Source of the DNA: an uncultured Gammaproteobacteria bacterium
GTDB taxonomy: Bacteria; Pseudomonadota; Gammaproteobacteria; SZUA-229
Direction: 5' to 3'
Assembly (NCBI GenBank): GCA_965602855.1
Contig: CBFCZV010000011.1
Span: forward strand, 453 to 64,452
DNA length: 64,000 nt
A program made the position numbers and the translations under genes. Of this stretch, positions 21,414 through 51,899 are shown one piece after another. The notes under the pieces were generated by a model. The model was given only the letters and a program-made list of their open reading frames with translations. It ran no database searches and had not been told where the DNA came from. Every line of letters begins with the position of its first letter. Position 1 is the first letter of the stretch.

Positions 21414-21419
21414 AAAAAT

Positions 21420-23782: not shown

Positions 23783-23929
23783 AGCACCACCTCATTACTT
23801 AATTGATTCACACTAATAGTGGGCGCTCAGTCATCATTTAAGTCAAGCGTGTGCTTATTGAATTTTTTTATCCCTTAAGGTCTAATTTTCATACTAAAAT
23901 CACTTTATTCAAAATTAGGAATTAATAAT

Positions 23930-32097: not shown

Positions 32098-34494
32098 CTA
32101 TCCATCAACATCCCTCACCATCTCATCATGATAGTACTTGTACTTCGGCCGCGCCTCGATGCCATGGCATTTAACACAGAACGTATCTTTGGCGCCCCGG
32201 CGGCGTAAAAAACTATTAAGTACATTGCCTTCCTGATTCTCAAACTCTGTCCGTTCAATTACTTCTTCTTTCTTGTTCGAACCATGTTCAGGCTGCCAAC
32301 GATGAGGATTATGACAGGTCACACATGCAATACTGCCAAACTCTTCTATTTCATTTTTCGCATTCACCAGCGGCATGACTTTAGCATCAGATCGCAGTAC
32401 AAGATCTTCAAAAGGATGGCTAAAGAGTTCAACTGTCCTCTTTTCAGCTACGCCTTTATCCTGGTGACAGTTCATGCAGATACGGTCTCGCTCAAGCGGT
32501 TTTTCCTTACCTTTTTCCTTATATTTTCTGCGCTCACCTGCATATAAAAAATCAGTTTGTTCATCACCTTTATGCAGGCTGTGGCAGGATCCGCAAACAC
32601 CAGCCTGTTCAGGCTTCTGATCAAAATGATTTTCATGATTTTTGGCGGTGACACGTAGATCATGATCGGTATTAGCTACCTGCTCATATTCTTCATGACA
32701 GAAACTGCATAGTTTGCCATCACGGTTATCAAACTTAAGCAGGGCAGTGCCTTCTTTACCATTGTGTAGATCATGACAGGTCAGGCAGGTAATTTTTTTA
32801 ATTTCTTCTTCACCAACCTTGACGGATTTTTCCAGCTCAATATTGACTGGATGTATACCTTTTTTGCGTGCATCTTTTTCATCTTTGGCGTGCTGGCGTT
32901 CGTGGCAGGCTGTGCACAGTTGTGCATCATCAATTTCTAGTGGTGTCAGTGCTTCATTGGCTGCACCGTGAATCTGGTGGCAGCTCTGGCAAATCATCTG
33001 TTTATCACCACCCAGACTTAGGCCTTGTTCTAACAGTTTCTTTGGCATGCCTTTATGCAAATGTTCATCTACGGCGTAACCTTCTGTCTCACCTGCGGGC
33101 GGCTGTTTGAGATAAACCCCCACTGGATGATTAATACCTTTTAAGGGGAATTTTTTGTTTAGCGTACTGGCCAGTTTTGATTCATGACACTGCTGGCACA
33201 GGTCACCATCCTTGTTCAATACTCGCAGCCATGGATTGGCGTGCTCGCTGTATAAAGTATCGGCTTCATCGATGTCTGCCGAATGTGGGGTATGGCAACT
33301 GCCGCAACTGAGCTGTTTTTCTTTATTGTGGTTATCGCTCAATAAAGGAAATGCTTCGGGTATTTCATCCTCTCGTTTTTTGTCTTTCTGTGTTTTATCT
33401 TTTTCACGCTGATGATGAATGTCGGGGTGCTGCTCACCATGGCCAATAGAACGACGTGAATCTAGAACCGCACCGTGGTGACAGCTATAACACATGCGCT
33501 CGCTGGCCACAGGTGGCACATCTTCATGGGAAATCTTTCCTGCTTTATATTCATCCGACCATTCCAGATGGCAGCTAATGCAGTTTTTTTGTGATGTCTC
33601 TAATGTTGCTTGCTGCGGTATTGTTGCCTGTATTTCTGAAAGCTGGAATACCTCAACCCGGTTTTCCAGTGCATCGACAACATAAAGCTTGTCCTGCTCG
33701 ATGCTTAGTGCAACTGGTGCTGAAAACTTGATGGGATTCTTTTTTTCATCCATTAAAAACCCATCAAACTCACCATCATAAAAAACTGAAATCGTACCGC
33801 GATAAGCATCACTCACCAGCATGTGCCGTTCTCTTAAGGCCAGTCCATTGGGGCGATACAGTTCGCCATCTGCCAGACCGAAGCGACCTGCCTGACCAAA
33901 TCGTCGACCTTGCTGATTAAATCCCTGTACCCTCGCATTGATGACATCGACTACCTGCAGATAGCCATCACGGTCATGCTTTATCTGAAATGGAAATAAA
34001 AATTCAGAAGCCAGCTCACCACGCTTGCCCCAGCACAGCAGTTCTTTGCCCGTACTGGCATCGATACGACAGACACGGTGGTTGCGTCGATCACTCCAGC
34101 TAATAATACCCTCGCTAATTGTCAGTGCCACCGGCTCTGCTGGCTTCTCACCAGACAGGGGCAAATGCTTGATCAGTCGCCCAGCCAAATCAAACATGCT
34201 GATGCGGTGATTGCCCGTATCAGCCAGATAAACTTTATCCTCACTGATAGCTATACCCATGGGTAAGTTCAATCCCGCAGACTGGCCAAAACTGAAAGAC
34301 CATGTTGCATTTTCATCAAACACGACGACCCGATTATTAACACCATCTAAAACATAGGCATGGCCGTCTTTACTAATGGCCACGTCACTGGGCTGATCCA
34401 GGCCGCCTTCCAGCGTTGTAATATGATCTGCCTGCAGTGCTGCGTTTGCATTAACCGCAAACAAGGCGCATATCAGGAAAAAAACTGTTCTCAC
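32098..34494 (-). CDS. NHL-repeat beta-propeller fused to a dodecaheme c-type cytochrome (periplasmic or secreted)
   Basis: 798 aa with signal peptide (AVNANA). Six NHL-like repeats (e.g. YVLDGVNNRVVVFD, YLADTGNHRISMFD, YVVDALENRVEVFQ), then 12 CxxCH. GTG start overlaps the upstream stop by 4 nt. Confidence 0.85.
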   Translation of the reverse strand: MRTVFFLICALFAVNANAALQADHITTLEGGLDQPSDVAISKDGHAYVLDGVNNRVVVFDENATWSFSFGQSAGLNLPMGIAISEDKVYLADTGNHRISMFDLAGRLIKHLPLSGEKPAEPVALTISEGIISWSDRRNHRVCRIDASTGKELLCWGKRGELASEFLFPFQIKHDRDGYLQVVDVINARVQGFNQQGRRFGQAGRFGLADGELYRPNGLALRERHMLVSDAYRGTISVFYDGEFDGFLMDEKKNPIKFSAPVALSIEQDKLYVVDALENRVEVFQLSEIQATIPQQATLETSQKNCISCHLEWSDEYKAGKISHEDVPPVASERMCYSCHHGAVLDSRRSIGHGEQHPDIHHQREKDKTQKDKKREDEIPEAFPLLSDNHNKEKQLSCGSCHTPHSADIDEADTLYSEHANPWLRVLNKDGDLCQQCHESKLASTLNKKFPLKGINHPVGVYLKQPPAGETEGYAVDEHLHKGMPKKLLEQGLSLGGDKQMICQSCHQIHGAANEALTPLEIDDAQLCTACHERQHAKDEKDARKKGIHPVNIELEKSVKVGEEEIKKITCLTCHDLHNGKEGTALLKFDNRDGKLCSFCHEEYEQVANTDHDLRVTAKNHENHFDQKPEQAGVCGSCHSLHKGDEQTDFLYAGERRKYKEKGKEKPLERDRICMNCHQDKGVAEKRTVELFSHPFEDLVLRSDAKVMPLVNAKNEIEEFGSIACVTCHNPHRWQPEHGSNKKEEVIERTEFENQEGNVLNSFLRRRGAKDTFCVKCHGIEARPKYKYYHDEMVRDVDG

Positions 34495-35294
34495 TTGAGC
34501 AAATCCTTGATGCGAATTTGTTGATCATCTTTTTTGAAGCGTGTGAAGAAACGTGCAATCGTGTTTCTCTGAATTTTTTTCGCCTGCTCGGGAGATGCGC
34601 CCAGTGCTGCCAGATCCAGCATGGGGTTATCATCACCATGGCAACGCTGACATTTCGGGCCTTTTTCTTCTAGCGGTGCGTGCAGGCGTGCTTTAAGTTT
34701 GGCCTTGTCATTTTCATTGGCATCCTGCCAGTCCTGTTTTATTCTTTTAGAAAAATCATCATCGCTAAATATTAAAGCCAGCTCTTCAATATAAAACGGA
34801 GTGATTTTTGCACCTATCTGTGGCACCAGCATCAACTGTTGTTCTGGCTTATCTTTTTTGTTTTCATCCTGCTTCGGAACACGGGCAGCAATTTTGTTGC
34901 CTGCATTAGCACCATCAAAAGCCAGCCACGCATATTCCATGTCAATATCATCAGGCCGCATATGACAGGTTTCACAGGCAATATAACGACTGTGCCTGTT
35001 CATAAAGGTGCGACTACGTTCGTTCTTTCTGTGTGGCAGGCTCTGATGGCAGTTCGTGCAAATCGCCTGCTTTGTAGTTTTCTGTTGCTCAGCACGGTGA
35101 TGAAACACCGGTACGGAAATATTTTCCTGCAACTTGATTTCCTTATGATCTTTTATTTTCTTAAGGGCCTCATCAACTTGCTTTTCACTGGGTGCGGCCT
35201 GGGTTACCTGCTGCTGGTAGAACGGTACGGCCAGCAGTTGCTGGGGCAACAATAATGAACATATAAATAAAAATACTAACCAGTGCTTATTCAT
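34491..35294 (-). CDS. triheme c-type cytochrome
   Basis: Start set at MNKHWLVFLF (signal peptide); ATGAATAA overlaps the upstream stop by 8 nt. Motifs CTNCH, CETCH, CQRCH. Confidence 0.8.
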   Translation of the reverse strand: MNKHWLVFLFICSLLLPQQLLAVPFYQQQVTQAAPSEKQVDEALKKIKDHKEIKLQENISVPVFHHRAEQQKTTKQAICTNCHQSLPHRKNERSRTFMNRHSRYIACETCHMRPDDIDMEYAWLAFDGANAGNKIAARVPKQDENKKDKPEQQLMLVPQIGAKITPFYIEELALIFSDDDFSKRIKQDWQDANENDKAKLKARLHAPLEEKGPKCQRCHGDDNPMLDLAALGASPEQAKKIQRNTIARFFTRFKKDDQQIRIKDLLK

Positions 35295-37554
35295 TGCCTT
35301 TCTCCTGATTAGCTGATTTTTTTCCGGAGGCATTTTTACTGTTCCTTTTCTTTACTTTTCCTTTGGCTTTGCGTTCCAGCATTTTTTCCTGAAAAGCATC
35401 ACCACCCAGTATGGAGAAGGTCACACCCTTTTTACGCTTGCCCAATACACTGCGCCACAAAGCACCAACAGCAAAAACCAGTATCACTGGAAGAAAAATA
35501 AACAATGCTTTTATCCAGTTTGAATCTGTTCTTTCAACGACGGGTAACGTGCTGTCATCACTAACGGCAATCATATCCAGATCGTGTAGATCTGTTTCGA
35601 CAAAGCCTTTATTTAGCGGGTGTTTAGCAAAGCCATGACATTCACTCTGTGCACAAGTTTCTGCCAGCTTTTCCGGATGCGTTGCAGCCTGTTTCTTTTC
35701 ATCGCGCAAAATGCCATGCCGATAACCTGTTGGTGCGTGGCAATCAATACATGATGCACCCTGCATAACATTCGCTTCTAGCAGACGTCCGTGCAGGGTC
35801 ATTGCATAACTATCGCTGGCGACGACAAATCGTGGCCCGGCTTTTTCTTTTTCCTGGGTTTCTTCATCTTCTATTTCAACTTCAGCCATGCGCTCGTGAT
35901 CTGCATGGCACTGGTTGCAGCTTCTGTTATGATCATTTTTATCCCAACGTGAACCTATAAAACGACGCAACAAATGCCCGCTAAATTGCCCTAACCAAAC
36001 TTCTCCTTGATGACATTTTCCACATTCAGTTTCGACATGATCAAAATCGGCTTTAAATTTCGGCAGCATTTTCTCACTGATATAGGCTTCGTTGCTGTGA
36101 CATTGACGGCAGGATGGGTTTTGTTTCTCGCTGCTTTCTTCCAGTCGGTTGCCGCCGGTGAATCCCTTGCTCCAGCCGTCGCCATGCGTGGAATCGGCAA
36201 ACTCTTCGACCACTTTTTTATGAGTATAGGGTTTGCCTTTGGATGGCTCTTCTACATGACAGGTCTCAGCGCAATCGACTTCACCATTCTCAACCTTGTG
36301 TGGAAAATCCTGTATTTTTCGATGACAGTCCTTGCACGGCACGCTGCCATGGAGTGAACTGTTGTAATGTTTTTTTTTGATTGATGCGCTACGTAGCACG
36401 CCTAGCTTATCAATATAATCCAGTCCCTCTAAAGCATGACAGGAAAAACAGCCATCGGGGTCGGGGTGACGCTCGGCGGCAAAAACATCCTGACTAAAAC
36501 CAACAAAGAGCAATGTCATAACAAAGATCAAGGCCACACTCATATGCCGTGGAGAACGCCAATGCTTAAATCCCTTTCCTTTATTTAGTCGCAGGTACGA
36601 CCAGCGACTGTCTTTTTTCTCCTTTTTTGATGGCTCGAAATGAACGGCCGTCCAGTTTGGCTGGGGATGGAAATCCACGCCTTTTTTCTTACGCTTAGGA
36701 TCTTCATCCAGTGGCGCACTACGCCAGTCGATTGCACCCCAGTCACAGACATCAACGCATTCATGACAGGACATGCAGGATAGTTGATCGACCACGGCAA
36801 TGCCGTCTTTCATCTGAATGGCACCGGTCATGCATTGGCGGGCACAGATATTACAGCCGGTACAGCGGCTACGTTCAACGCGTACCCGTCGGGTAAATCT
36901 GAACATTGCACCGAGTCGATTAACCAGTCCATCGACGGCACCGATGGGGCAAAGGAACGTACAGTAAGCACGGCCTTTGCTGGAAAAGAATCCCAGCAAA
37001 AACAGCAGAGCGATATTGACCAGACCAATGCCAGACAAAATATAAGCAAACCCCTTGAGGCCACCACTGATTGCTTCAAACAAACGCGGCACGGTAATAA
37101 AATTACATAGCGTGCAGGCGCTGATACCCAGCAGCGGCATCAATACCAGATAAACAGAAAAGTAACCGTAACGAATTGGCACCTGAGGCAGGGCGCGGTA
37201 TTCAATCTTCCAGCGGTCGTCTATTGTGCGGCTGACCATTTCGGGAAAACCGCCGACCGGACAAACGTAGGAACACCACATACGGCCGTAAAAAAACGTG
37301 GTCATCATAATGGTGGTGAACACATATACCCCGATGGAGGCTACCTGAATATTATTAGCAACATCCTGTGGGTCCATACCGGGGAAGATTAGATAAAAGC
37401 GGCGCATACAAAGCTTGCCGCACAGATCCGGATTATCAACCAGGCTCGGTAAAAACAGAAAGGGCGCAAAAAATAATGTGCATGACAATATAATTATTGC
37501 GTAGCGAAACTTCTGCGGGTTGGGTATCGCCTTGATGTTATCGATAATTCTCAT
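35287..37554 (-). CDS. NapH/CcoG-type membrane polyferredoxin fused to a membrane-anchored multiheme cytochrome c domain
   Basis: 755 aa. N-terminal 4 TM helices with CSYVCPVGG and CTFLCPIGA, then two 4Fe-4S motifs (CTGCNICARQC, CMSCHECVDVC). A TM follows, then 6 CxxCH plus CAETCH and CAQSECH, a final TM, and a Lys-rich tail. Confidence 0.85.
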   Translation of the reverse strand: MRIIDNIKAIPNPQKFRYAIIILSCTLFFAPFLFLPSLVDNPDLCGKLCMRRFYLIFPGMDPQDVANNIQVASIGVYVFTTIMMTTFFYGRMWCSYVCPVGGFPEMVSRTIDDRWKIEYRALPQVPIRYGYFSVYLVLMPLLGISACTLCNFITVPRLFEAISGGLKGFAYILSGIGLVNIALLFLLGFFSSKGRAYCTFLCPIGAVDGLVNRLGAMFRFTRRVRVERSRCTGCNICARQCMTGAIQMKDGIAVVDQLSCMSCHECVDVCDWGAIDWRSAPLDEDPKRKKKGVDFHPQPNWTAVHFEPSKKEKKDSRWSYLRLNKGKGFKHWRSPRHMSVALIFVMTLLFVGFSQDVFAAERHPDPDGCFSCHALEGLDYIDKLGVLRSASIKKKHYNSSLHGSVPCKDCHRKIQDFPHKVENGEVDCAETCHVEEPSKGKPYTHKKVVEEFADSTHGDGWSKGFTGGNRLEESSEKQNPSCRQCHSNEAYISEKMLPKFKADFDHVETECGKCHQGEVWLGQFSGHLLRRFIGSRWDKNDHNRSCNQCHADHERMAEVEIEDEETQEKEKAGPRFVVASDSYAMTLHGRLLEANVMQGASCIDCHAPTGYRHGILRDEKKQAATHPEKLAETCAQSECHGFAKHPLNKGFVETDLHDLDMIAVSDDSTLPVVERTDSNWIKALFIFLPVILVFAVGALWRSVLGKRKKGVTFSILGGDAFQEKMLERKAKGKVKKRNSKNASGKKSANQEKGNE

Positions 37555-37557
37555 TCT

Positions 37558-38460
37558 TTATCTCTCAAATTCATGGCAGGCTAAACACAGCGTGCCGTCT
37601 TTGGCTGACAGGCGTAGCAATACCTCATCCTGCAGGCGTTGATATTTCAGTTCGTGCGTACCGCCGTCCTGCTTTGCCAGTTTTTTTAATCGTTTTTCTT
37701 TATCAGCCCTGAATACTTTGTTCCAGACATGATCTTTGTAGCTCACACCTTTTTCAACTTCTACATCTGCAATCTGTCTGCCAGCGGGTTTATCTTTTGC
37801 AATCACGCCTATTTCATGGGGCGAGTGACAGGTGGCACACATGACTTTGTTTTTACTGTCCAGTGGCAAAATGATCTTATGTTCCTGTTCCGATTTTTCT
37901 ATACGCTCTCGCATTTCCTTATCCGGCTCTGCCCGATGATTCAGCGCATTAAAGTGCGGCGCATCTAAATGACAGCCCCAGCATAATTTTTCAGGTGGCA
38001 GGCGAAATTCCAGCTCATCTCGTTTAATTTCTTTTTCTGGGTCGGGTGCTTCCTTATGGCAATACTCACAGTCTTTCTCATCGTACTCACCGTTATCATC
38101 GAGCAGGTCATGAATATTAGGACGCTGATAATCTTCCTTCTCATGACAGAGATAACAGAAATCACTTAGCTTTTTGTAAGGGCCGCCACGGTGAAAGTCA
38201 TCGGCTTTTTTATCTACCTTGTCAATTTCTGTTTTTTCAATATCCTTGATGCCATGACAGGTTTTACAGACGATCTTGCCTTCATCACTCAACGGTAAAT
38301 CATCAGACACTTTCATTGCTTCTGGCGGTTTGATGTCAACCAGATGGTGCATAGCTGGCAGCTCAATTTTTTTATCTCCCGCCGTCGTGTCTTCTGCTAT
38401 TACCTGTAAGGGCAACAGACCAATAAGAAATAGAGATAAATATGAACGAGTGAACATCAC
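37558..38460 (-). CDS. hexaheme c-type cytochrome (periplasmic)
   Basis: 300 aa with signal peptide (LPLQVIA). Six CxxCH (CKTCH, CYLCH, CEYCH, CWGCH, CATCH, CLACH). Confidence 0.85.
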   Translation of the reverse strand: MMFTRSYLSLFLIGLLPLQVIAEDTTAGDKKIELPAMHHLVDIKPPEAMKVSDDLPLSDEGKIVCKTCHGIKDIEKTEIDKVDKKADDFHRGGPYKKLSDFCYLCHEKEDYQRPNIHDLLDDNGEYDEKDCEYCHKEAPDPEKEIKRDELEFRLPPEKLCWGCHLDAPHFNALNHRAEPDKEMRERIEKSEQEHKIILPLDSKNKVMCATCHSPHEIGVIAKDKPAGRQIADVEVEKGVSYKDHVWNKVFRADKEKRLKKLAKQDGGTHELKYQRLQDEVLLRLSAKDGTLCLACHEFER

Positions 38461-39449
38461 ATGCCTGCCTGTGCAGCTTCACCGTGTGTATGGCAATCTC
38501 GGCAGTCACCACCAACATCGTGCACACCGCTCAGGCCATTACCAGTATCCTGTGCACCTTCATCTACTATGGTCTCCATCTGATGACACAACACGCACAG
38601 CTGAGAATAATCACCATCAACTACTGTTACCGAATAGGGCTCATCACGTAATACACTATCAAGCTGTGAAGCCCCTTTGTTTGAGCTATCAATAATTAAT
38701 TTTTCATTATTAGTGGCGTGCATGCTGTGACAGTCCGTACAATCGACAACACTCTGATAGCTATACGCCTCGCGCAGGCCACTATAAGTTGCTACACCAC
38801 TGCCATCGACTAACCCGTGTTTATCAATAAAATTAAAATCATCTTCTGATGCAACTAGAGGGTCGTCGTAGCTGTTGCCAGTAATTTCAAAGCCGGTTTG
38901 CTGGTGATCACGATTGTGGCAACGCAGGCAGAATTCAGCTTCTGAACTGTAGTCCACAATGTTCTGCAGGGCGTTGGGGTACTTTGTCAGGTCAGTATTG
39001 ATTTCAAACTGTCCGTCCATATCTGATGCATCGTGGCAATAGACACATTGTTCATCACTAACGTCTGCCACCAAAGTCGCACTAAAACCATGGCCATGCT
39101 GGCCTTGCCAAATTTGATTATCAGGCATATCACTGTTGTTGTGACAAATGACACACTGGCGTGAGCCACTTTCATTCGTGCCGTTGTTACCATGGCAGCC
39201 AGTACAACTGGCAAAGCCTTTTTCAACAACAATGCCACGAATTAGATCTGCAATGTCATGAATTCCTGCTATCGAATGACATGCACCACAATCTGGCAAT
39301 CCCCAGGCTGCGCCACCTTCGCCATGACTGGCATCCAGAATTAAATTAGCTTCTGTAATATGTTTTGTTTCACCCTCACTATCACCGCCACAGGCTGTAA
39401 GCAGTAGTGACAGCATCAATCCTAAAATTAAAATCATTTTATTCATCAT
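38457..39449 (-). CDS. octaheme c-type cytochrome lipoprotein
   Basis: 330 aa. Lipobox LLLTAC followed by GGD; eight CxxCH. Overlaps the upstream stop by 4 nt (ATGA). Confidence 0.85.
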   Translation of the reverse strand: MMNKMILILGLMLSLLLTACGGDSEGETKHITEANLILDASHGEGGAAWGLPDCGACHSIAGIHDIADLIRGIVVEKGFASCTGCHGNNGTNESGSRQCVICHNNSDMPDNQIWQGQHGHGFSATLVADVSDEQCVYCHDASDMDGQFEINTDLTKYPNALQNIVDYSSEAEFCLRCHNRDHQQTGFEITGNSYDDPLVASEDDFNFIDKHGLVDGSGVATYSGLREAYSYQSVVDCTDCHSMHATNNEKLIIDSSNKGASQLDSVLRDEPYSVTVVDGDYSQLCVLCHQMETIVDEGAQDTGNGLSGVHDVGGDCRDCHTHGEAAQAGM

Positions 39450-40078
39450 CGACTCTTCCTGTGACAGTCACTACAGTAACCAATGTTGTGGCAACGACTG
39501 CATGAAGCAGCATTCATACGCGCCTCGATACCATGGCTGGCACGATAACCCAGACCATGAACTCGCCGATGTGTTTTATCGCGACGGAAATGACAATCGC
39601 TACAAAAAGACTGATCGATATGACAGCTACTACATTGCTCATCATCTGGTTTGGCCGAATCCAGACGTGCATCCTCACCGTGATGATTTGCGTAATCCAG
39701 ATTGTGATCTTTCGGCCATATTTTTTTCGGATCGTCATGACACAGTTCACAACGCGAGGGGGCACTCTGCCTGCTTACATGGCATTCATGACAAATCGCT
39801 TCTAGCGGCTCATTGGAAATTACATTGAGCTTTTTAAGCTGTTTTAGATCAGTGACGCTGTTTTTATTAAAGGGATGACACAGTAAACAACTATCTCCTT
39901 CCTTTTCCATCGCATCAAAATGTGCTTTATGCGGATAAAAAATATCGGCGCGCTGATCACGCATTTGCCACCAGCTTTTTTCTTTCTCTGGTTTGTTCGT
40001 CACTTCTTTTTCCAATGTTGCCTGTTCAGCCATCACTGGCAACGCAAACAGGGTCAGAAACAACAATAAAATTCTCAT
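39446..40078 (-). CDS. heptaheme c-type cytochrome (periplasmic, c3/c7-like heme density)
   Basis: 210 aa with signal peptide (ALPVMA). Seven CxxCH in about 150 mature residues. Start overlaps the barrel gene stop by 1 nt (TAATG). Confidence 0.85.
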   Translation of the reverse strand: MRILLLFLTLFALPVMAEQATLEKEVTNKPEKEKSWWQMRDQRADIFYPHKAHFDAMEKEGDSCLLCHPFNKNSVTDLKQLKKLNVISNEPLEAICHECHVSRQSAPSRCELCHDDPKKIWPKDHNLDYANHHGEDARLDSAKPDDEQCSSCHIDQSFCSDCHFRRDKTHRRVHGLGYRASHGIEARMNAASCSRCHNIGYCSDCHRKSR

Positions 40079-41349
40079 TACATTGCTCCCTGCCTGTCAT
40101 CGCCAAAGCTATAACTAAGACTAAGAAGAAAGCGATATTCATCTTCGAGACGACTATTCCAGATATGGCTAGCGGTAACATCAAACTCTAGGCCAGATAG
40201 CATGTCTTTAACGCCTAGCATATGCTCCATACGTAGCTCTATGCCAATACTGCGATTATCGCCCTCCAGTTGTTTTTCCTGTTGCTGCAATACGCTACTG
40301 ACGCCACCCCTCACAGAAGAGCTGAGAGTTTTCTCTACATCAATGAACAAACTACTTACACGCTCAGTCTGCAATTCTAGTTGTTCAGCTTTAGCCGCAA
40401 GTAACAAGCCTTGATTGCTACGCCGCTCAATTTCAAACATGGACGCATAACCGTTACCACCGACTTCACGATTCACCTGCCGCGTTGCCACTGACCATGT
40501 TTGTTGATAATCATATTTAAATTGATAGGCTGCTTTGAATTGCGTTTGTTGACCAGTAGCATAAAGTGAATAAAATCGGTCTCTAAAACTCAGCGCATCA
40601 TCAGCAGGCTCGTAGGTTTCATAGTCGAGTCGAAGCGTGCTATCTTCTTTCAAATCCCAGCGTGTATTCATCAGCACTGATTCCCACTGCGATCTTTCTA
40701 CTACGTAACTTGCAGACATCGATAATGCTGCAGGCAGCAGATTTTCATTATCACTACTAGCAGCCAATCCGAAATGATAGCGTTGTTCATGACCATCCTG
40801 ATCTAAACGCTGCCAGCCGAAGCGAGTATCAACTTGATAATTATGAATAAGACGTGGCATAGTTAGCAGATCAACCCCATAGATCGCCTCACCATCAATT
40901 GAATTAAATGCTTCAACGCGACCGGGGACGCCTGTATAAAAGTTTAGAATTAGAGCGTCAGCTTTATGACGATATTGAAGACCATCAAGACTGTAATAAC
41001 CGAGGGTATCGGCTCGAAAAAAACGACCCACACTAATTCGATCTAGTGATTTATTAAAATCCTGTTGCAGATAAAATTGATACAGCTCAGCTTCACTATC
41101 ATCTGTCTGTTGTGACAATGCTAAGCTCAAGCCACTTATCAAGCCTTTATTATGATCGTTATAAACTAGATCAAGCCGTTCTTGCAAACTACTCTCAGAA
41201 TAAAACTGGCTGTTATTCATTTCAATAGCAGTTTCCAGCTCCCCCGACAATCCTGCCTGTGCATCTGATGTTGCTAATGCCATTATGCCTAACAGGCTTA
41301 GTACATAATTAAAACCGCGCACTGCTATCGTCGTAAAAACCATTGCCAT
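40078..41349 (-). CDS. putative outer-membrane beta-barrel (porin-like partner of the adjacent cytochromes)
   Basis: 423 aa with signal peptide (ALATSDAQA). No Cys and no heme motif. Tyr/Gly/Ser/Asp-rich with alternating hydrophobic pattern; LLSLSYSF lies near the C-terminus. Confidence 0.6.
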   Translation of the reverse strand: MAMVFTTIAVRGFNYVLSLLGIMALATSDAQAGLSGELETAIEMNNSQFYSESSLQERLDLVYNDHNKGLISGLSLALSQQTDDSEAELYQFYLQQDFNKSLDRISVGRFFRADTLGYYSLDGLQYRHKADALILNFYTGVPGRVEAFNSIDGEAIYGVDLLTMPRLIHNYQVDTRFGWQRLDQDGHEQRYHFGLAASSDNENLLPAALSMSASYVVERSQWESVLMNTRWDLKEDSTLRLDYETYEPADDALSFRDRFYSLYATGQQTQFKAAYQFKYDYQQTWSVATRQVNREVGGNGYASMFEIERRSNQGLLLAAKAEQLELQTERVSSLFIDVEKTLSSSVRGGVSSVLQQQEKQLEGDNRSIGIELRMEHMLGVKDMLSGLEFDVTASHIWNSRLEDEYRFLLSLSYSFGDDRQGAM

Positions 41350-41539
41350 GTTTCTTTTTATGCACGGCCCAGGTAACGATAGCTGCTAGCGCAACCACAC
41401 AGCCACCACAGGTAGAACAACGACCTTCTTTTGGAACAGTGCAGTTGGAAGAAGTGATAATATGACTAACGGCAAAACCAGCACCCGCTAACCAGGGCAC
41501 CAATTTTTCACTTCGCTTTAGCAAGCTTTTTTGTTTCAT
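41309..41539 (-). CDS. small Cys-rich two-TM membrane protein
   Basis: 76 aa. Two hydrophobic segments flank NCTVPKEGRCSTCGGC. Its 3' end overlaps the barrel gene start by 41 nt, so either gene's limits may differ. Confidence 0.4.
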   Translation of the reverse strand: MKQKSLLKRSEKLVPWLAGAGFAVSHIITSSNCTVPKEGRCSTCGGCVVALAAIVTWAVHKKKHGNGFYDDSSARF

Positions 41540-41563
41540 TATTATTTGCCTAAAAGAATCCGC

Positions 41564-41598
41564 GGGAAGTTATTTCCAAAAAGGAGGCATAACTTCCC
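41564..41598 (-). promoter_or_regulatory. intercistronic stem-loop between the large surface cytochrome gene and the downstream genes
   Basis: GGGAAGTTAT-15 nt-ATAACTTCCC is a perfect 10-bp stem. Only a weak U-stretch follows, so it may be an attenuator or an mRNA-stability element. Confidence 0.45.
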
Positions 41599-41625
41599 AC
41601 GGTAATGTCACTCGAAGGAGGCGAG

Positions 41626-44508
41626 TTAAACTCTGATACGACGTCTGCCACAACCCACCAGGGTCATAACAAACATCCCAATTAACAGCACATAGTCAGC
41701 CGATCCACCACCTGATGACGTAGAAGTAACAGCACTAGAATCACTATCTGCAGATGCAATGCTACTATCAACAATTGCATAATCACTGAAGTGATCAGTC
41801 CAGAATACAATCATACCTTCACTCTCTTCACCCTCGACTTCAGAGTGAGGCTGTATTAGGGCAATGTCATCTACACTAATTTCTGACCAGCTAACACCGC
41901 TATCAGTAGAGAAGATAACTTTGACCTCATCAAGACGGGTATTGCTACCCTTATAAGGCATTTTCACCAGCATTCGATTGTTCGAAAAGTTAGTTACTTC
42001 GTTACTGTTACTGTCTGTTACTTGCAATGAGTAGACGTCTGAAGTTAGTCCACCTAGATCTGCATCATCAACACTGGCAAGCACATCAAGGTTAGACAAA
42101 CTGACCTGCACTCTGTAATCAGGGAACGTTAGTTCAGTTTGTCCATTATCTTCCACCATCACTAACACTCCACGAATAACACTGCTACCATAACGTGCCT
42201 GATACGCAAACACGTCATCACCAGGGAACAAAGTAGCAGCTAATGCCGTATTTGCTACTCCTGCCTTCACAATTGCATCATGGGCAGACGCTCGTTTAAA
42301 TACGCCTGAATCTGCATCAGTTATTTCAGCATTCAAAATTGACATAGATGGATTGAGTCTTGATGCATAAAGAATATCTGAAACATTCTCAGTAACCACA
42401 CCGAACTCATCGGCCTTCATGTATGGATAATCAAAAATCACCAAACCTTCATCGACAAGACGAGGGTCTACTAACTCAGTAATTTCTTTAGTATTACCTT
42501 CACCAAACAGGCCTGTGGGTGACAACAATGTACTAAATGACCCATCCTGTTTAACATTATGGCACTGCTCACACTGTACCGAAGCAACTGCTGGGCGAGT
42601 ATTATGTGACATCAAATACTGGTTTGATTCTGTCCAAACCATAATTGCATCTGGATTTTCTACACCTTTAGCAATCAATACTTTGTCAAAAGCATTTTTA
42701 ACCGCAACAAATGTTTCATAATCCTCGGGTTCACCAAAACGCCAGCTGCCGTGAGAGAAACTGACCGTCACTGTGCCCAACTCTTCACCAGATACCGGGT
42801 CAACAATAACACCATAATTTTCTCCCGCATCATCTGTAAGCATTTCAAAAACACTATCACGCTCGGTCTTATTTATAGTGCGACCAGTATTTTTATCTTT
42901 CCAGTAGTAACGCAGCCTTGGGTTGTAAGGAACAATTGTAAGATCACCATTTTCAGCTGCACGATACCTGTACATCGGTAGTATCGGAACACCGCGACTT
43001 TCCTTATCTGTAATATGACAGGCCTGACAACTAACAACGTCCAGATGCGTCTGCGTAATACGTTCCAGCGTCTCCTGTGGATATCCAGTCATATCGCCAC
43101 TTGCTTTCCATTTCGCAAGATGAGCCTCCTGCATACTGTCATGACCTGAAGGAATAGCAGGATTCGGTGCATCATCATGGCAATATTCACAGGATTTTGC
43201 ATTCGGTGAATAATCCAGATCATTACGTACATCCATATCTGAATTACCTTTAAGGAAATTATGATCAGCATCCAGATCAACATTGGCATACGCTGGATTA
43301 AAATAATTCCGTGTATGACAGGCATTACAGTTTTCTATTGCACGCTCTTCGCCATTAGGCTCAATCCACGTCTTACCTTTATGCACATCATCCTGATAGT
43401 CCTCAACTACAACACCGTCCTCATCAATAACTGCTTCTGCACTTTCACCAAAACCATAAAAACCACGGCGTGAGTTGCTGGTAAGGTGGCACATCATGCA
43501 GTTATCATTAGCTGGGAATCGAATCATCGGAATAGCTACTTTCTTGTCCTCATCAAAAGCAGCGGTATTCCAGTTGAGTAGTGGTTGCTCATTCTCATCC
43601 TCAAGCAACATATAAGCCGGCTCAGACGCATGCATATCAATTTCTACGCCTTCTGGTATTTCTGTGGTGCGATCAAAAGTAACCACTGAGGTATCCACCT
43701 GCACACCATCTTCATGCTTAAGATTCAAAAACTCTAAAATGGAAGTATTCACACTGCGGAATTGCCCTTCATCAGCCAAATAGGTACGGCGCAATGCTTT
43801 AAAATGATCAAACGCAGAGTCTCCGCCTTCAACCTCTAACTGTGGATCAAAAACTTGTAAAGCGTCAAATTGCACATGACATATCAAGCAGTCATTCTCT
43901 ACGACACCACTTTTTTTCCAGTCCCATGCAGAAATTCCACTTGGATCCTCTGTACCCGCATTGGTATTACGACTGTAGTAATCACCATCGAACTTGGGAA
44001 CAGAAGCAATATCAACTTCATCATAGCGGTTTCCATTTCTGTCTTTCTCCATCCAGCCACCACCAGCATGACAACTTACACATCGCATAATATGATCGGC
44101 TGACCCCAGATCACCAAAATCATCAGCACTCGCATTACTCTTCTTAGCAAGCTGATCTGGATTGCTGCTTCCCATGCAGTTATAACCACCATAATAACCA
44201 GGGCCAACTAGAGTAGTCAGCCCGCGCAATTCACCAAAGTCATCGCGAGTCTCATCGCGACCTTGTTCAATATGAAAAGCATGAGTAATGGCCTCATAGT
44301 CATGACAGCCACCAGTACCACAGGTAACTTTTGAACTATAAGGATTAGCACTATCGAGAACATGGTTACCATCTTCATCTAGTAACGGAATGGCCGGGTG
44401 TAGAATCGGTTTATCCATATCATTAATTGCCGCTTCTACCTGCCCAACTGACACAAATAAAAACAAAAACCCTGACAAAACCACCATTTTCTTATTTAAA
44501 AAATTCAT
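41626..44508 (-). CDS. large (960 aa) multiheme c-type cytochrome with a C-terminal GlyGly-CTERM-type sorting signal
   Basis: Start set at MNFLNKKMVVLSGFLFLFVSVGQVEA (SD GAGAG, 9 nt spacing). Seven CxxCH plus CGTGGCH (CX4CH). The last ~300 aa are heme-free. C-terminus is SSGGGSADYVLLIGMFVMTLVGCGRRRIRV. Confidence 0.85.
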   Translation of the reverse strand: MNFLNKKMVVLSGFLFLFVSVGQVEAAINDMDKPILHPAIPLLDEDGNHVLDSANPYSSKVTCGTGGCHDYEAITHAFHIEQGRDETRDDFGELRGLTTLVGPGYYGGYNCMGSSNPDQLAKKSNASADDFGDLGSADHIMRCVSCHAGGGWMEKDRNGNRYDEVDIASVPKFDGDYYSRNTNAGTEDPSGISAWDWKKSGVVENDCLICHVQFDALQVFDPQLEVEGGDSAFDHFKALRRTYLADEGQFRSVNTSILEFLNLKHEDGVQVDTSVVTFDRTTEIPEGVEIDMHASEPAYMLLEDENEQPLLNWNTAAFDEDKKVAIPMIRFPANDNCMMCHLTSNSRRGFYGFGESAEAVIDEDGVVVEDYQDDVHKGKTWIEPNGEERAIENCNACHTRNYFNPAYANVDLDADHNFLKGNSDMDVRNDLDYSPNAKSCEYCHDDAPNPAIPSGHDSMQEAHLAKWKASGDMTGYPQETLERITQTHLDVVSCQACHITDKESRGVPILPMYRYRAAENGDLTIVPYNPRLRYYWKDKNTGRTINKTERDSVFEMLTDDAGENYGVIVDPVSGEELGTVTVSFSHGSWRFGEPEDYETFVAVKNAFDKVLIAKGVENPDAIMVWTESNQYLMSHNTRPAVASVQCEQCHNVKQDGSFSTLLSPTGLFGEGNTKEITELVDPRLVDEGLVIFDYPYMKADEFGVVTENVSDILYASRLNPSMSILNAEITDADSGVFKRASAHDAIVKAGVANTALAATLFPGDDVFAYQARYGSSVIRGVLVMVEDNGQTELTFPDYRVQVSLSNLDVLASVDDADLGGLTSDVYSLQVTDSNSNEVTNFSNNRMLVKMPYKGSNTRLDEVKVIFSTDSGVSWSEISVDDIALIQPHSEVEGEESEGMIVFWTDHFSDYAIVDSSIASADSDSSAVTSTSSGGGSADYVLLIGMFVMTLVGCGRRRIRV

Positions 44509-44528
44509 TACAATCATCTCTCTTATTT

Positions 44529-44795
<267 letters not shown>

Positions 44796-44966: not shown

Positions 44967-45944
44967 TCAAAGATTAACAAAATTAACCTCCAACCTAAAC
45001 AACACCTCCCAAGCCCCCAAGCGCTCATCCGTAACCAGTGGCTTATTCCAGTTAACTGCTGGCGCTATCTCATAGAACAACCATTTTCTATGAAAATTCT
45101 GTCGAAAACGTATACCCACACGTGTGTTATTTGTATACCTATCCGGCTTTGTCACACCACTTACACTACTCTCATAAGAAAGCGCGCTTTTATCTGTTAG
45201 ATGCTGGTACAGTACCAAACCGCTTGTCAATTCTTTACCTTCAAAACTTTCTGATTTAGAGGCATAATTAGTTTGTCTTAGTAAAAAATCATCACTCAGT
45301 TTTTTTTCAAAATCTATTCTAGATGTGGTTCCATCCGCATTATCTCGCCTGAACAATTCCTGTGTAAATCGAGTGATAAATGTTTCAGTAATTGGCCACT
45401 TATAACGATAGCGAAAGGCAATGCTCGGAGAAAGTTTTACCCTGACACCAAAATTTGCTCTTTCTGATTTTGTTACCTCGTACAACAAACCAAGGTTGCC
45501 ACCTGACTCCGTATCAGAACCGGGGACAATATCCCGTAAAGTTTCATCTTCATCATCTTCAAATATAAGATTGATACTCTTCTTTGTTTTGGGTAGTTTA
45601 AAACTGGCATGCAAATTACTGGCATATGACCATCTACCTCCCTCAGTTAATATAAAATCGTTTTGCCAGCGAACACGCGTACCTGCTCGCACCTCTTCGT
45701 CTACTCGAGCACTAGAAAAAAACGAATCAAACCATACTGAAGGCTCACAGAACTGTATGCTCAAATAAGTATGCGCCTCATCAAACCAGCTATCACTTTC
45801 TCCCTTCAATTGCTCACAGACAGACGACTCATCCTCCTGTTTAATTTCTTCAGACACTTCTGCATAGGCATGCTTTACCTGTACCGAACTCAGCAATACA
45901 AGCAGAAATATATAACTTATTTTTTTATAAGCTAATGGGAGCAT
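44967..45944 (-). CDS. hypothetical outer-membrane protein (possible small beta-barrel)
   Basis: 325 aa with signal peptide (VKHAYA). Alternating-pattern segments; C-terminal FRLEVNFVNL. Confidence 0.5.
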   Translation of the reverse strand: MLPLAYKKISYIFLLVLLSSVQVKHAYAEVSEEIKQEDESSVCEQLKGESDSWFDEAHTYLSIQFCEPSVWFDSFFSSARVDEEVRAGTRVRWQNDFILTEGGRWSYASNLHASFKLPKTKKSINLIFEDDEDETLRDIVPGSDTESGGNLGLLYEVTKSERANFGVRVKLSPSIAFRYRYKWPITETFITRFTQELFRRDNADGTTSRIDFEKKLSDDFLLRQTNYASKSESFEGKELTSGLVLYQHLTDKSALSYESSVSGVTKPDRYTNNTRVGIRFRQNFHRKWLFYEIAPAVNWNKPLVTDERLGAWEVLFRLEVNFVNL

Positions 45945-46025
45945 TTAATTTTTTTTAACCACCTTAATCAAAAGCCTGCAATAAGCAGGCCTTTGATTCA
46001 TATAAAAAGTCTGTTTTCACACATT

Positions 46026-47609
46026 CTAATGTATTTTTATTACTCCTGGTTTTTCTTTCTTAAAGTCAGGCATAGCCATGCCCACAGAAGCATTTATGTA
46101 GGTAGGGTCAGCAACTACATAGCGCTGACCATTGTGCATTACCGAATCACCCACTACGCGGCCTTTAAATCGAACCGCCGTTGCCACATGTCCAGGATAA
46201 TCCAGCCCAACCACATCCATACCTAACAGGCTGTGTACCAACCATGCAAAAAGGATGGAGCGATCTTCGCAATCTGAATAAGGGTAGTAGATCGTTTCTT
46301 CAGGAAACAAATAGTTTTCTTTACCAAACTGCCCTTCATCTGTTTTGTAACGTAGTGATGTCTGTACAAATCTCAGCAAAAAGTTAACGGCTTTTTGTTC
46401 ATCCATTCCTTTCATGTGATCACTGAGTTGTCTTTGTAATGAGTTCGAGGCCGCCGCACTCACCTTGCCTTTAAAATACCACTCAAGATCAAGCTGTGGA
46501 TAGGTTTCCATGAAGCGAATACGCTCATTATTGTAAGCTGCATGAATCTCATAATGCTTGCCTTCAAAATCAAAGGACAAATTTCTACGTGCTGCTTTAC
46601 TATCAAGCAGCGCTTCATTATTCATTTGCATATTCAAAGCTTTATTTGCATCAGGATAGTTACCATCATAGGTATACACCTGACCTAATTTTTGACCCTT
46701 GCCATCAAAACGAACGGCATAATAACGGACTTTTTCGAAGGTAAAGTACGGCACTGCATACATTGGCTGCTGAGATGGCACTAGTAAAAACACTTTTCTA
46801 TCATTATAGGCGATACGTGATTGAAAGCCCGACTTGGCAAGTACAAACCAGGTAAATAATGACTGACTACTCTCTGAAGAATAAATCTTCCCTGCAATTT
46901 CATGCACCAATAATGCATGAGCCCAGTCATTGAGCTGCAAGGCTTTTGATTTTTTATTCACCTGATCAATCAGGTCATCATAATCAGCCAGACTAAGCGC
47001 AGACCAGAAATCACTAATGCCTTTTCCATTAACTCGTGATTTCATTGACGTCTTCAATTTTGGATCATAATAAAAAGTATGGCGACTACCCAGATAAGTG
47101 AGCACCAGCTTTCTACCCTTATGTACGATCTTGGGTTCTGGCGCTATGACAGGTCTTATAACAGGTTCAGGGACAACAGGCTTTAAAATCACTGGCTCCG
47201 GTTTACTTTCAGGAACAGGTGGTATTTCTACAACTGGTTTTGGTGTATCAGGAATTTTAACAATCGGCTCAGGCTTTGGTGCTGGCTTTACCTGAGGCTT
47301 CGGTTCATCTTTCACAACAGGTGTTGGCACGGGCCGTGGTGGTTTAACTGGCTGCGGTTTCGCTACTGGCATAACCACTGGCTTGGGCGCTTTATCACGT
47401 ACCACACCCTTTAATAAATCCATTTCTTTCCACTGCAATTTCAAAAACGTTGTGAACTCCTTATCTCTCTTATCTTTATATTCCTGAAATGATGCCTGAT
47501 ACTGCTTCTTCCATGCTGCATAATCATCGTTAGCATATGAAGACTGACTCACTGCCACTACAAATACAAAGCTAGTAAAAACACCAAAACTTTTACTCAA
47601 TCTGTACAT
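46026..47609 (-). CDS. secreted protein with Pro-rich linker and C-terminal transglutaminase-like (Cys-His-Asp) domain
   Basis: Start set at MYRLSKSFGV (signal peptide). PKP/PVP-rich tract of about 100 aa. YPYSDCEDRS...YPGHVATAV...VVADPT gives a candidate catalytic triad. Confidence 0.6.
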   Translation of the reverse strand: MYRLSKSFGVFTSFVFVVAVSQSSYANDDYAAWKKQYQASFQEYKDKRDKEFTTFLKLQWKEMDLLKGVVRDKAPKPVVMPVAKPQPVKPPRPVPTPVVKDEPKPQVKPAPKPEPIVKIPDTPKPVVEIPPVPESKPEPVILKPVVPEPVIRPVIAPEPKIVHKGRKLVLTYLGSRHTFYYDPKLKTSMKSRVNGKGISDFWSALSLADYDDLIDQVNKKSKALQLNDWAHALLVHEIAGKIYSSESSQSLFTWFVLAKSGFQSRIAYNDRKVFLLVPSQQPMYAVPYFTFEKVRYYAVRFDGKGQKLGQVYTYDGNYPDANKALNMQMNNEALLDSKAARRNLSFDFEGKHYEIHAAYNNERIRFMETYPQLDLEWYFKGKVSAAASNSLQRQLSDHMKGMDEQKAVNFLLRFVQTSLRYKTDEGQFGKENYLFPEETIYYPYSDCEDRSILFAWLVHSLLGMDVVGLDYPGHVATAVRFKGRVVGDSVMHNGQRYVVADPTYINASVGMAMPDFKKEKPGVIKIH

Positions 47610-47637
47610 TTTCTTAACCTTTCTGCCCTTTATAAAC

Positions 47638-47674
47638 AAAAAAACCGGCACCCAAATCTAATCAGGTACCGGTC
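47638..47674 (-). terminator. rho-independent terminator after the LPP20-like gene
   Basis: Minus strand reads ACCGGTACC-12 nt-GGTGCCGGT followed by TTTTTTT. It lies upstream of the revised start at 47609. Confidence 0.6.
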
Positions 47675-47708
47675 TTTATTAACAATCATACTCAAATTTA
47701 TTCGAGAG

Positions 47709-48296
47709 TTATTGCCTACCTGCAGCAATTGCAGCGGCCAGTTCATCCTGACCTTTTTGAGCTTTAAACTGCTGCCATAAAGCCTTGTCATTATTCATAC
47801 TAGTACGTAGTGCTTCCTGTGTTGCTGTAGCTGCTGATGAGCTATCCATTCCAAGTAAAACATATAAGGTACCGTTTGGACTTGTTCGAGATTTATAAAT
47901 CTTGGTTCCAATCAGTGACTGATCGGTAATCTGCTTGGTAACAGACGTATTAACTTTATCTACTGTTTCTGAACTAGCCGCGCCTGTTGTTTCAGCATAC
48001 TGCTTAACCATATTACTAACATGGACTTTCATGCCTTGAGCCAGCTGAACTCGAGCATCAGTCGCTGCCATATTTTTCATAAAACTATGGCCTGCTGCTG
48101 ACTTCTCAGCAGATCCAACTGCAGAAACTTCAACACCTTCTACCGGCTCATCACACACCCAACTAGGAGCCGCCGTATTTGGCGCATCAGGGAATGCACA
48201 ATCTAACGCCACTTTAACCTCTTCAGGACTACAGGCCGCTAGCAATACAGACAAAGCCACACCACTTACGGCAAATAAACTATTTTTAACTTTCAT
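47709..48296 (-). CDS. LPP20-family lipoprotein
   Basis: Lipobox LLAAC. The VGSAEKSAAGHSFMKNMAATDARVQLAQ pattern is LPP20-like. Start set at MKVKNS (GGAG SD, 9 nt spacing). Confidence 0.6.
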   Translation of the reverse strand: MKVKNSLFAVSGVALSVLLAACSPEEVKVALDCAFPDAPNTAAPSWVCDEPVEGVEVSAVGSAEKSAAGHSFMKNMAATDARVQLAQGMKVHVSNMVKQYAETTGAASSETVDKVNTSVTKQITDQSLIGTKIYKSRTSPNGTLYVLLGMDSSSAATATQEALRTSMNNDKALWQQFKAQKGQDELAAAIAAGRQ

Positions 48297-48519
48297 TGTT
48301 TCCATCTCCACTCATTTAATCGGTAGTATTTTTTTCGTTGGATAAACTTAACTGAGATAACACTCATATGCAATTGATATCATCAAATTTATGACTTAAG
48401 TATATATGATATCGAAATACCCACTCTGTTAAGCAGCTCACAAAAAAACAATCAGATTCTCAGCATTCATTGCTATAATTCTGCCACTTTTAAACTAATT
48501 TTCATGACTGAGAAAGCAT

Positions 48520-49549: not shown

Positions 49550-49591
49550 GTGCTCGTCACTCCGTACTTGAAGATTCTGATTTTATAATTC

Positions 49592-51896: not shown

Positions 51897-51899
51897 CTT

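Follow-up and report, generated by a model that had tools for sequence, protein, structure and literature searches.

Introduction

Only a few families of porin-cytochrome conduits are known, namely Mtr/Mto/Pio and the Geobacter Pcc and Ext systems, to which the proposed PCC3, PCC4 and Uet can be added, and tools of the FeGenie type detect catalogued families only. In the Pcc clusters, a porin-like protein of 18-22 predicted strands is always accompanied by a periplasmic cytochrome with 5-14 hemes and usually by an outer-membrane cytochrome, and identities among the members go down to 8-13% (Shi et al. 2014). The Geobacter conduits share no homology with one another, and a "putative electron conduit" has been defined by three criteria (Jimenez Otero et al. 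2018). Here, we describe a gene cluster in a 64,000-nucleotide stretch of DNA from an uncultured gammaproteobacterium (GenBank assembly GCA_965602855.1, contig CBFCZV010000011.1), which is referred to as the window. The cluster is a 12.7-kb operon of nine to ten genes on the minus strand (32098-44783), and in the middle of the array lies a trio encoding a predicted outer-membrane β-barrel protein (B) and two multiheme cytochromes (C and D). On our best reading, the cluster encodes a new porin-cytochrome conduit type, non-homologous to those described; this kind of conduit is already known, and the family, its fixed architecture, the small protein s76 and the fusion of a NapH-like protein to a cytochrome are apparently undescribed. 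With a probability of roughly 60%, B, C and D form the outer-membrane segment of an envelope-spanning conduit that is fed by the membrane protein F and relayed by the cytochromes G, E and H, with the large cytochrome A as the distal component.

Results

A predicted β-barrel and two multiheme cytochromes

An earlier interpretation made from the letters of the window (the sequence-only reading) had pointed to three consecutive overlapping minus-strand genes for a barrel-like protein, a soluble heptaheme cytochrome and an octaheme lipoprotein, and the listing of open reading frames agrees with this arrangement (B, 40078-41349; C, 39446-40078; D, 38457-39449). The stop codon of B and the start codon of C share one base (TAATG, in the context ATG TAA TGA GAA), C and D overlap by 4 nt (ATGA, in the context CGA TGA TGA AT), and D overlaps likewise with the next gene, E (GTGA). 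Judged from these overlaps, C is translationally coupled to both B and D.

As had been read from the sequence, B is a 423-aa protein with no Cys and an N-terminal signal peptide, which ends in AQA followed by G and leaves a mature protein of 391 residues. Its barrel-like composition was borne out by strand prediction. Using an alignment of 20 homologs as input, AlphaFold2 gave a model (mean pLDDT 78.4, pTM 0.68) with about 22 β strands of 9-15 residues, an all-β fold in which helices are confined to the signal peptide, one loop and a short stretch at the C-terminus. The loops are mostly 2-11 residues long, one loop of 20 residues includes a short helix, and a plug domain is absent. When the model was compared with the PDB by Foldseek, the top 50 matches were outer-membrane barrels only (Campylobacter MOMP, the FimD/PapC ushers and OprD/Occ), with a best E of 5e-9; because the TM-scores were 0.4-0.5, B can be assigned to the barrel fold class and to no specific family. 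The strand faces also alternate between polar and apolar. For the hydrophobicity averaged over the alignment, the mean difference between faces along the predicted strands was 2.06, compared with 1.17 ± 0.19 and a maximum of 1.82 in 500 column shuffles.

The two faces of the predicted barrel differ in conservation as well, with 18 columns conserved in at least 80% of the sequences on the polar face versus 6 on the apolar face. The polar face, which presumably lines the lumen, carries many conserved Gly, Ser, Glu and Arg. Because this face is better conserved and rich in Gly, B would suit a role as a sheath packing around a partner, and we propose on the basis of the model that it is the sheath of the conduit. 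The best-conserved segment (LSFRDRFYSLY) sits in the single long loop, after an odd-numbered strand, and this loop would be extracellular if B has the usual topology with a periplasmic N-terminus. From the standard formula for barrel geometry, the C-alpha radius of a 22-strand barrel was calculated to be about 20 Å. TonB-dependent receptors have 22 strands, and their lumen houses a plug of about 150 residues. Given this radius and this precedent, the lumen of B could plausibly fit a thin heme-bearing chain. The small size of B had been taken to fit a barrel of the Pcc type rather than the MtrB type (about 700 aa), and the count of about 22 strands is in keeping with this, as it lies within the range of 18-22 given by Shi et al. 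2014.

Searches with B gave zero sequence matches in Pfam, NCBIfam or the PDB. A Pfam scan of 29 diverse members of the barrel family likewise assigned no family, MtrB_PioB included, and the profile of the family found no sequence match among the PDB chains. A collection of 5.8 billion proteins yielded 23 members of the family, and a profile search of this collection, confined to candidates passing a word pre-filter, added none; among 1.84 billion representatives, 81 clusters were obtained at 50% identity. All of these proteins are unnamed or "hypothetical", and the clusters are about 380-500 aa long, barring fragments and two very weak multi-domain matches. B is also the fastest-evolving member of the operon, with a mean Poisson distance of 1.09 versus 0.55-0.86 for the others. 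Outside the closest relatives, the identity to the window protein is 24-45% for B and 34-69% for the cytochromes.

The other two members of the trio are cytochromes with the sizes and motifs that had been noted for them. C (210 aa) has 7 CxxCH motifs, a signal peptide and no further hydrophobic segment, which is consistent with a soluble periplasmic heptaheme protein, and D (330 aa) has 8 CxxCH motifs and the canonical lipobox LLLTAC with its Cys at residue 20. The N-terminus of D, MMNKMILILGLMLSLLLTAC-GGD, shows the lipobox L-T-A-C and a Gly at position +2. All 7 heme motifs of C are invariant in 58 homologs and all 8 of D in 22 orthologs, and the counts of 7 and 8 are constant in every complete ortholog examined; because of this invariance, the motifs can be regarded as functional sites beyond chance. 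In the 58-homolog alignment, C also has six invariant extra His and a near-invariant Met, which could serve as distal heme ligands. With 7 hemes in 193 mature residues, C has about 28 residues per heme, compared with about 39 in D and about 33 in MtrA (PMC5566968). Searches of C and D against Pfam, NCBIfam and the PDB gave sub-threshold, motif-level matches only.

From these features, C is our candidate for the heme wire inserted in the barrel, and we propose that D is the outer-membrane-anchored cytochrome that would take electrons from it. The roles of C and D could also be swapped, with D spanning the barrel, its lipid anchor on the periplasmic leaflet of the outer membrane, and C acting as a periplasmic shuttle or adaptor. 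C and D have a homologous four-heme core (hhalign probability 96.7%, E 3.6e-10), so that either could fit and D is still a candidate barrel occupant. D, with its 8 hemes, shows some MtrA-like motif spacing, its residues 95-187 can be aligned with the N-terminal portion of the decaheme profile DmsE/MtrA (E 2.5e-10, which does not reach the cut-off), and in Methylococcaceae it is a plain secreted protein, which would fit an MtrA-like insertion in the barrel. However, C is smaller than D and more densely packed with hemes, its gene adjoins that of B with a 1-nt overlap, and the anchor of D is gained and lost together with the anchor of the peripheral cytochrome A. The divergence of B also follows that of C more closely than that of D. 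Of the pairwise distances compared, those of C show the highest correlation with B (raw r 0.93), and when the background, taken as the mean of the A, F, G and H distances, was regressed out for 22 related sequences, the partial r was 0.54 for B and C versus 0.26-0.30 for D, E and s76. Since the pairs are not independent, this mirror-tree comparison serves as a soft indicator only. We consider swapped roles unlikely, and C is kept as the putative wire in what follows.

The lipobox of D, from which the sequence-only reading took it to be a lipoprotein, is present in the window and is specific to one clade. The Methylococcaceae orthologs have an ordinary signal peptidase I signal and no lipobox, and because the lipobox is missing in about half of the family, a lipid-anchored outer cytochrome is not a defining feature of it. 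The D ortholog of one locus (L004, 11901-12893) has Asp at +2 after the lipobox Cys (YSC-DNS), compared with Gly in the window. By the sorting rule of E. coli, Asp at +2 would retain such a lipoprotein in the inner membrane.

The operon around the trio

The trio had been presented as a module of its own, and this did not hold up: wherever the barrel occurs, the order of the nine-to-ten-gene operon is kept. The trio alone as a conserved unit was therefore ruled out, the full array being found at every locus with enough flanking DNA. In the window, ferredoxin, A, s76, B, C, D, E, F, G and H are packed on the same strand without sizeable gaps and have about 52 heme sites when summed over the operon. 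When the operon was scanned for promoters and terminators, predicted promoters were no more frequent than expected by chance and no terminator was convincing, and an Rfam scan of the 64-kb window found zero RNA families.

The largest cytochrome, A (41626-44553, minus strand), was recognised by its heme motifs and Pfam match. It has 975 aa, 7 CxxCH motifs and one CX4CH motif, and a signal peptide, and its likely true start is Met16 (at 44508). Its sole above-threshold match is to the Pfam MtrC/MtrF domain II/IV (35 bits, cut-off 30). The C-terminus has a Gly/Ser-rich stretch, a hydrophobic helix (950-968) and an RRRIRV tail. A GlyGly-CTERM tag, which this tail resembles by eye, was considered and rejected, as none of the NCBIfam sorting-signal models matched the tail of A in the window. 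Among the orthologs of the marine clade, the tails are tripartite, with a motif containing Gly/Ser or Cys, then a hydrophobic helix and finally an Arg cluster, and the anchors are Gly-rich, of the JDVT-CTERM type or weakly MYXO-CTERM-like; in locus L007, the JDVT-CTERM sorting domain is above its cut-off (50 bits). JDVT-CTERM and MYXO-CTERM belong to one group of Cys-containing tripartite C-terminal sorting signals, and myxosortase sorts MYXO-CTERM proteins to the cell surface (PMC11980579). The marine clade (L001-L018 and L039) has both the lipobox of D and the C-terminal anchor of A, the Methylococcaceae loci (L019-L036) have neither, and A is not present in L026 and L036, which are both from Methylococcaceae. 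In the Geobacter conduits, the extracellular parts are the most variable ones (Jimenez Otero et al. 2018). Because the anchors co-vary, A is dispensable and the extracellular parts vary most in Geobacter, A and D are suggested to be peripheral and environment-facing, and we propose that A is the surface-exposed terminal cytochrome.

The features of A can also be read in favor of a respiratory system confined to the periplasm, in which B would be a channel for a soluble substrate, A an inner-membrane-anchored octaheme reductase of the tetrathionate/sulfite/nitrite type, and C, D, E, G and H a supply chain fed by F. A (E 4.8e-10) and G (E 2.2e-8) both match the family of octaheme tetrathionate reductases below threshold, one of the eight heme sites of A is atypical, and the tail of A would be a plain transmembrane anchor if unprocessed and matched no sorting-signal model. 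In addition, ExtI, a barrel of the conduit type from Geobacter, has been implicated in selenite/tellurite reduction (PMC5877670). However, the match of A to the tetrathionate-reductase family reaches 39 bits versus a cut-off of 375, whereas A does pass the MtrC/MtrF cut-off, and the loss of A from some genomes that keep the rest would be unexpected for a catalytic terminal enzyme. Six other proteins with about 44 hemes would make an extravagant supply chain, the loops of B are minimal with none long enough to be a constriction loop, and translational coupling links the barrel gene to that of a cytochrome. Because A can be lost and its only above-threshold match is MtrC/MtrF, a periplasm-only system appears quite improbable, and a trans-envelope conduit remains the preferred reading.

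Between A and the barrel lies s76 (41309-41539, minus strand), a 76-aa open reading frame whose product has two hydrophobic segments and two basic ends. It overlaps the start of B by 41 nt. Its four Cys, spaced C-x7-C-x2-C-x2-C, are conserved in all orthologs but one. The gene is always found in this position, in every related locus covering the region, with 42-91% identity (72% for the 76-aa gene of locus L001), and neither Pfam nor NCBIfam returned a match for s76. Roles as an assembly factor, as a metal or redox site, or as a membrane tether are conceivable.

The array starts with an 84-aa ferredoxin with 2x[4Fe-4S] (44529-44783, minus strand; Pfam Fer4/Fer4_9/Fer4_7), which would be cytoplasmic because it has no signal peptide. 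In the marine clade, its gene heads the operon, with a homolog directly upstream of A in L001, L004-L007, L009-L011 and L039; in the Methylococcaceae loci, no ferredoxin homolog was found adjoining the cluster.

Downstream of the trio, E (37558-38460, minus strand; motifs and Pfam) is a 300-aa secreted hexaheme cytochrome with 6 hemes in all orthologs, for which we propose a role as a periplasmic relay. F (35287-37554, minus strand) is a 755-aa protein of the predicted inner membrane, in which a NapH/NosR-like Fe-S part is fused to an eight-heme domain. It matches Pfam Fer4_5 (50.6 bits, cut-off 22, E 1.9e-13), contains Fer4_7 and matches the NCBIfam NapH/MauN subfamily below the cut-off (E 3.6e-20); because the match does not reach the cut-off of the NapH equivalog, F is regarded as a relative of NapH and not as NapH itself. 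The N-terminal part has two CX3CP motifs (WCSYVCP and YCTFLCP) and two [4Fe-4S] motifs (CTGCNICARQC and CMSCHECVDVC). The membrane domain is followed by a transmembrane segment, a predicted periplasmic eight-heme domain and a C-terminal transmembrane anchor, with five hydrophobic segments in the protein. The 8 heme sites are 6 CxxCH, one CX3CH and one CX4CH; a further "CxxCH" at residue 260 belongs to the ferredoxin motif CMSCHECVDVC and is not a heme site. F is split into adjacent genes for a NapH-like protein and a cytochrome in L004-L006, L008-L010, L019, L021, L023, L025-L028, L031, L032 and L036, so that the one-gene and two-gene forms represent the fusion or fission of genes in a single family. 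The usual companion of NapH-like proteins, in the same chain or as a partner, is a flavinylated periplasmic domain, in place of which F has a multiheme domain.

The last two genes encode G and H. G (34491-35333, minus strand; motifs) is a triheme cytochrome, with 3 hemes in all orthologs, that has an N-terminal hydrophobic segment and a likely start at Met14 (at 35294). H (32098-34494, minus strand; Pfam NHL and Paired_CXXCH), the last gene of the operon, encodes a secreted 798-aa protein with an N-terminal NHL β-propeller, whose residues 30-240 or so match NHL propellers in the PDB, and 12 hemes; its orthologs have 12 or 14.

Distribution and genomic surroundings

When one genome per species was scanned for the barrel (185,579 species), 35 loci were found, all in metagenome-assembled genomes (MAGs). 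The carriers are labelled Gammaproteobacteria, Chromatiales, Sedimenticola, Methylococcaceae, Methyloprofundus and Methylomonas, with a few labelled only "bacterium", and none of the 35 genome matches is from Desulfuromonadota. Two of the loci are on complete Methyloprofundus chromosomes, and one barrel-bearing contig of 1.1 kb is binned as Planctomycetota. Additional contigs come from a Thiolapillus genome and a MAG labelled Deltaproteobacteria. The closest relative of the whole cluster is in the gammaproteobacterial MAG N3S-Bin_7, with proteins 67-89% identical to those of the window.

The gene order is strictly conserved. When the proteins of the window were compared with all loci by tblastn, the order A-s76-B-C-D-E-F-G-H was found wherever the contig was long enough, except in L026 and L036, which lack A. 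The order from s76 to H is kept in 35 GTDB species, in Thiolapillus and in more metagenome contigs, even at 24-45% barrel identity, and the heme counts of the orthologs are 7 for C, 8 for D, 6 for E, 3 for G, 7+1 for A, and 12 or 14 for H. In L036 (9761-12737; Methyloprofundus chromosome NZ_OZ252594), the barrel gene is interrupted by a 453-aa reverse-strand open reading frame, possibly an insertion sequence. Because the barrel is split in L036 and A is missing from L036 and L026, the cluster may be decaying or being remodelled in some methanotrophs.

Genes for cytochrome c maturation by System I (ccmF, a ccmG/dsbE-like redoxin, ccmH and ccmI/cycH) and dsbA are found on the same strand of the window, 4-9 kb upstream of the operon (48914-53819). 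Between them and the operon, three minus-strand genes (44967-48311) encode secreted proteins: one of 325 aa with no family, one of 541 aa with a Pro-rich spacer and no family, and an LPP20-family lipoprotein; none of the three was next to the cluster in the other loci examined. Further away, a gene pair for a dihaem cytochrome c (Pfam DHC) and a cytochrome b561 is duplicated in tandem and adjoins a histidine kinase/response regulator (1189-6870, minus strand), and a gene for a di-haem cytochrome c peroxidase (CCP/MauG) precedes one for a DAHL-PAS-GGDEF-EAL signalling protein (59717-63264, plus strand). The region 18000-24000 has a low GC content (0.39-0.40 versus about 0.45 elsewhere) and an IS3-family transposase (rve, HTH_21; 19070-19894, plus strand), and it may be an inserted mobile segment.

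Discussion

The preferred reading gives the cluster a continuous electron path across the cell envelope. Electrons would leave the quinol pool, or possibly the cytoplasmic ferredoxin, through F and its eight-heme periplasmic domain. They would cross the periplasm through triheme G, hexaheme E and the dodecaheme NHL-propeller protein H; the NHL domain has already been associated with outer-surface cytochrome complexes. They would then enter heptaheme C, which would form an insulated heme wire inside the roughly 22-strand barrel B, and pass onto octaheme D, which in this organism would be held by its lipid anchor. The path would end at A, held at the surface by its C-terminal anchor and touching an acceptor that is insoluble or lies outside the cell, for example Fe(III)/Mn(IV) oxide or an electrode. 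The analysis shows the gene content, the invariant heme counts, a predicted barrel fold, the domains of F and H and the synteny across lineages; we infer the localisations of the proteins, the formation of the complex, the position of C in the barrel and the direction of electron flow. The conduit is supported by the cytochrome c maturation genes and dsbA upstream, and by a trio that fits the definition of a conduit and the size ranges of Pcc. Specifically, B and C show the features by which the Pcc and Ext systems are recognised, a barrel within 18-22 strands and an adjoining periplasmic multiheme cytochrome, and with D as a putative lipoprotein, the trio falls within the three-criterion definition of Jimenez Otero et al. 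2018.

Concerning the direction of flow, outward transfer is favored only slightly, because the operon has a quinol-oxidising module of the NapH type and a cytoplasmic ferredoxin, and because its methanotroph hosts need electron sinks. The same hardware could run inward, as in MtoAB/PioAB, and supply the quinone pool with electrons taken from Fe(II), reduced minerals or a cathode. Many carriers are labelled as marine sulfur-oxidising or chemolithotrophic lineages (Thiolapillus, Sedimenticola, Chromatiales and hydrothermal-vent metagenomes), the Mto and Pio conduits do run inward, and PCC3 and Uet have been proposed for electron uptake in similar organisms. However, the operon starts with the gene of a cytoplasmic ferredoxin, members of the NapH family are viewed as putative quinone-binding or quinol-dehydrogenase subunits passing electrons outward to reductases in the periplasm, and the Methylococcaceae carriers need electron sinks rather than donors. 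None of these three points is decisive, and we regard inward flow as a rather unlikely but serious alternative to outward transfer.

Several observations weigh against the conduit as described above. In the Pfam, NCBIfam and PDB searches, there was no sequence homology to any validated conduit. The AlphaFold2 model of C alone, built with 58 homologs, is unreliable (pLDDT 58.8) and had no Foldseek match, which leaves an elongated wire shape of C hypothetical. Roughly half of the D orthologs are not lipoproteins, and the C-terminal helix of A could equally be an inner-membrane anchor if it is unprocessed. The mirror-tree signal comes from 22 related sequences and has no valid p-value, and the sequence sets no constraint on the direction of flow.

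The distribution of the cluster raises a wider possibility, which we put forward tentatively as somewhat short of an even chance: the cluster may have moved as one block between marine sulfur-oxidising/chemolithotrophic Gammaproteobacteria and Methylococcaceae, as a new type of self-sufficient trans-envelope conduit with its own barrel family, a NapH-like-cytochrome entry module and s76, and it may provide a route of respiration in methanotrophs. Its presence in Methyloprofundus, Methylomonas and other Methylococcaceae bears on the activity of "aerobic" methanotrophs in anoxic sediments and waters, and on whether methanotrophs alone can couple methane oxidation to Fe/Mn reduction. If the reading is true, nominally aerobic methane oxidisers would gain a direct route to metal oxides or other extracellular acceptors once oxygen is gone. 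A 2026 study pointed only to an MtrAB-type cluster, in Methylobacter, and the cluster of the window is distinct from it. Its proteins are "hypothetical" wherever they are named and are in no library searched, and the cluster is conserved gene for gene in at least 35 species-level genomes. As a single operon of 12.7 kb, it can be a concrete and clonable candidate, and the B-C pair may be the smallest insulated trans-membrane heme wire so far proposed.

Compared with the described systems, the cluster stands apart in sequence and resembles them in design. In the literature on Uet, PCC3/4, Pcc/Ext and Methylobacter, which was not covered exhaustively, the cluster is not described. Searches of A, B, C, D and H against the PDB, with B, C and D also used as profiles, gave no significant sequence match to a solved conduit complex; apart from the NHL propeller matched by H, they returned only c7/NapB matches at chance level. 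PCC3, PCC4 (He et al. 2017) and Uet (Tenderiales) are likewise non-homologous, new porin-cytochrome clusters from chemolithotrophic Proteobacteria that were proposed from genome context. The periplasmic cytochromes of PCC3 have 21-27 hemes, whereas the largest one here has 12; PCC3 and PCC4 have an inner-membrane protein of the di-heme-b type, with 5 transmembrane segments and two WX3HX13H motifs, in the place of the NapH-like Fe-S protein F; and PCC4 lacks an extracellular cytochrome. Uet comprises a barrel of 28 strands (UetC), an undecaheme cytochrome (UetJ), triheme c7 cytochromes (UetDEG), a cupredoxin, a prolyl isomerase and separate NHL proteins, so that an NHL domain and a triheme cytochrome are the only themes in common. 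The NapH-like-cytochrome fusion, the Cys-rich protein of 76 aa and the 7/8/6/3-heme series are in none of the three, according to their descriptions.

With MtrCAB, MtoAB and PioAB, the cluster has in common the principle proposed here, that is, a multiheme cytochrome in a barrel that hands electrons to a surface cytochrome. As in mtrCAB, the gene for the large outer cytochrome comes first, and A matches the MtrC/MtrF domain II/IV model. In contrast, B has about 22 strands in 391 mature residues, whereas MtrB has 26 strands in the structure or 28 by prediction, and no cytochrome here can be assigned to the DmsE/MtrA decaheme family (TIGR03508, cut-off 192 bits), since D, E and H reach 40, 23 and 57 bits and none of them has 10 hemes.

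The analogy to the Geobacter Pcc system, which had been drawn in the sequence-only reading, stands for the three-part architecture and for the ombB-omaB-omcB gene order only; no known conduit family was matched in the Pfam, NCBIfam and PDB searches, and the trio is part of a larger operon. Several differences can be listed. C and D have 7 and 8 hemes, compared with 8 and 12 in OmaB and OmcB, and upstream of the trio, s76, A and ferredoxin are found instead of an OrfR/OrfS TetR-type regulator. The trio is in a fixed operon with its own inner-membrane module, the Cys-rich s76 and the NHL-cytochrome, the lipoprotein status of D is not conserved in its family, and the hosts are Gammaproteobacteria, a group not on the list of the Pcc survey. 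Set beside the published descriptions, the likeness to the Geobacter proteins is one of architecture and gene order: as in Pcc (OmbB-OmaB-OmcB) and Ext (ExtABCD and ExtEFG), a small barrel is combined with a periplasmic multiheme cytochrome and a lipoprotein cytochrome (putative for D), and extra cytochromes are clustered alongside in both.

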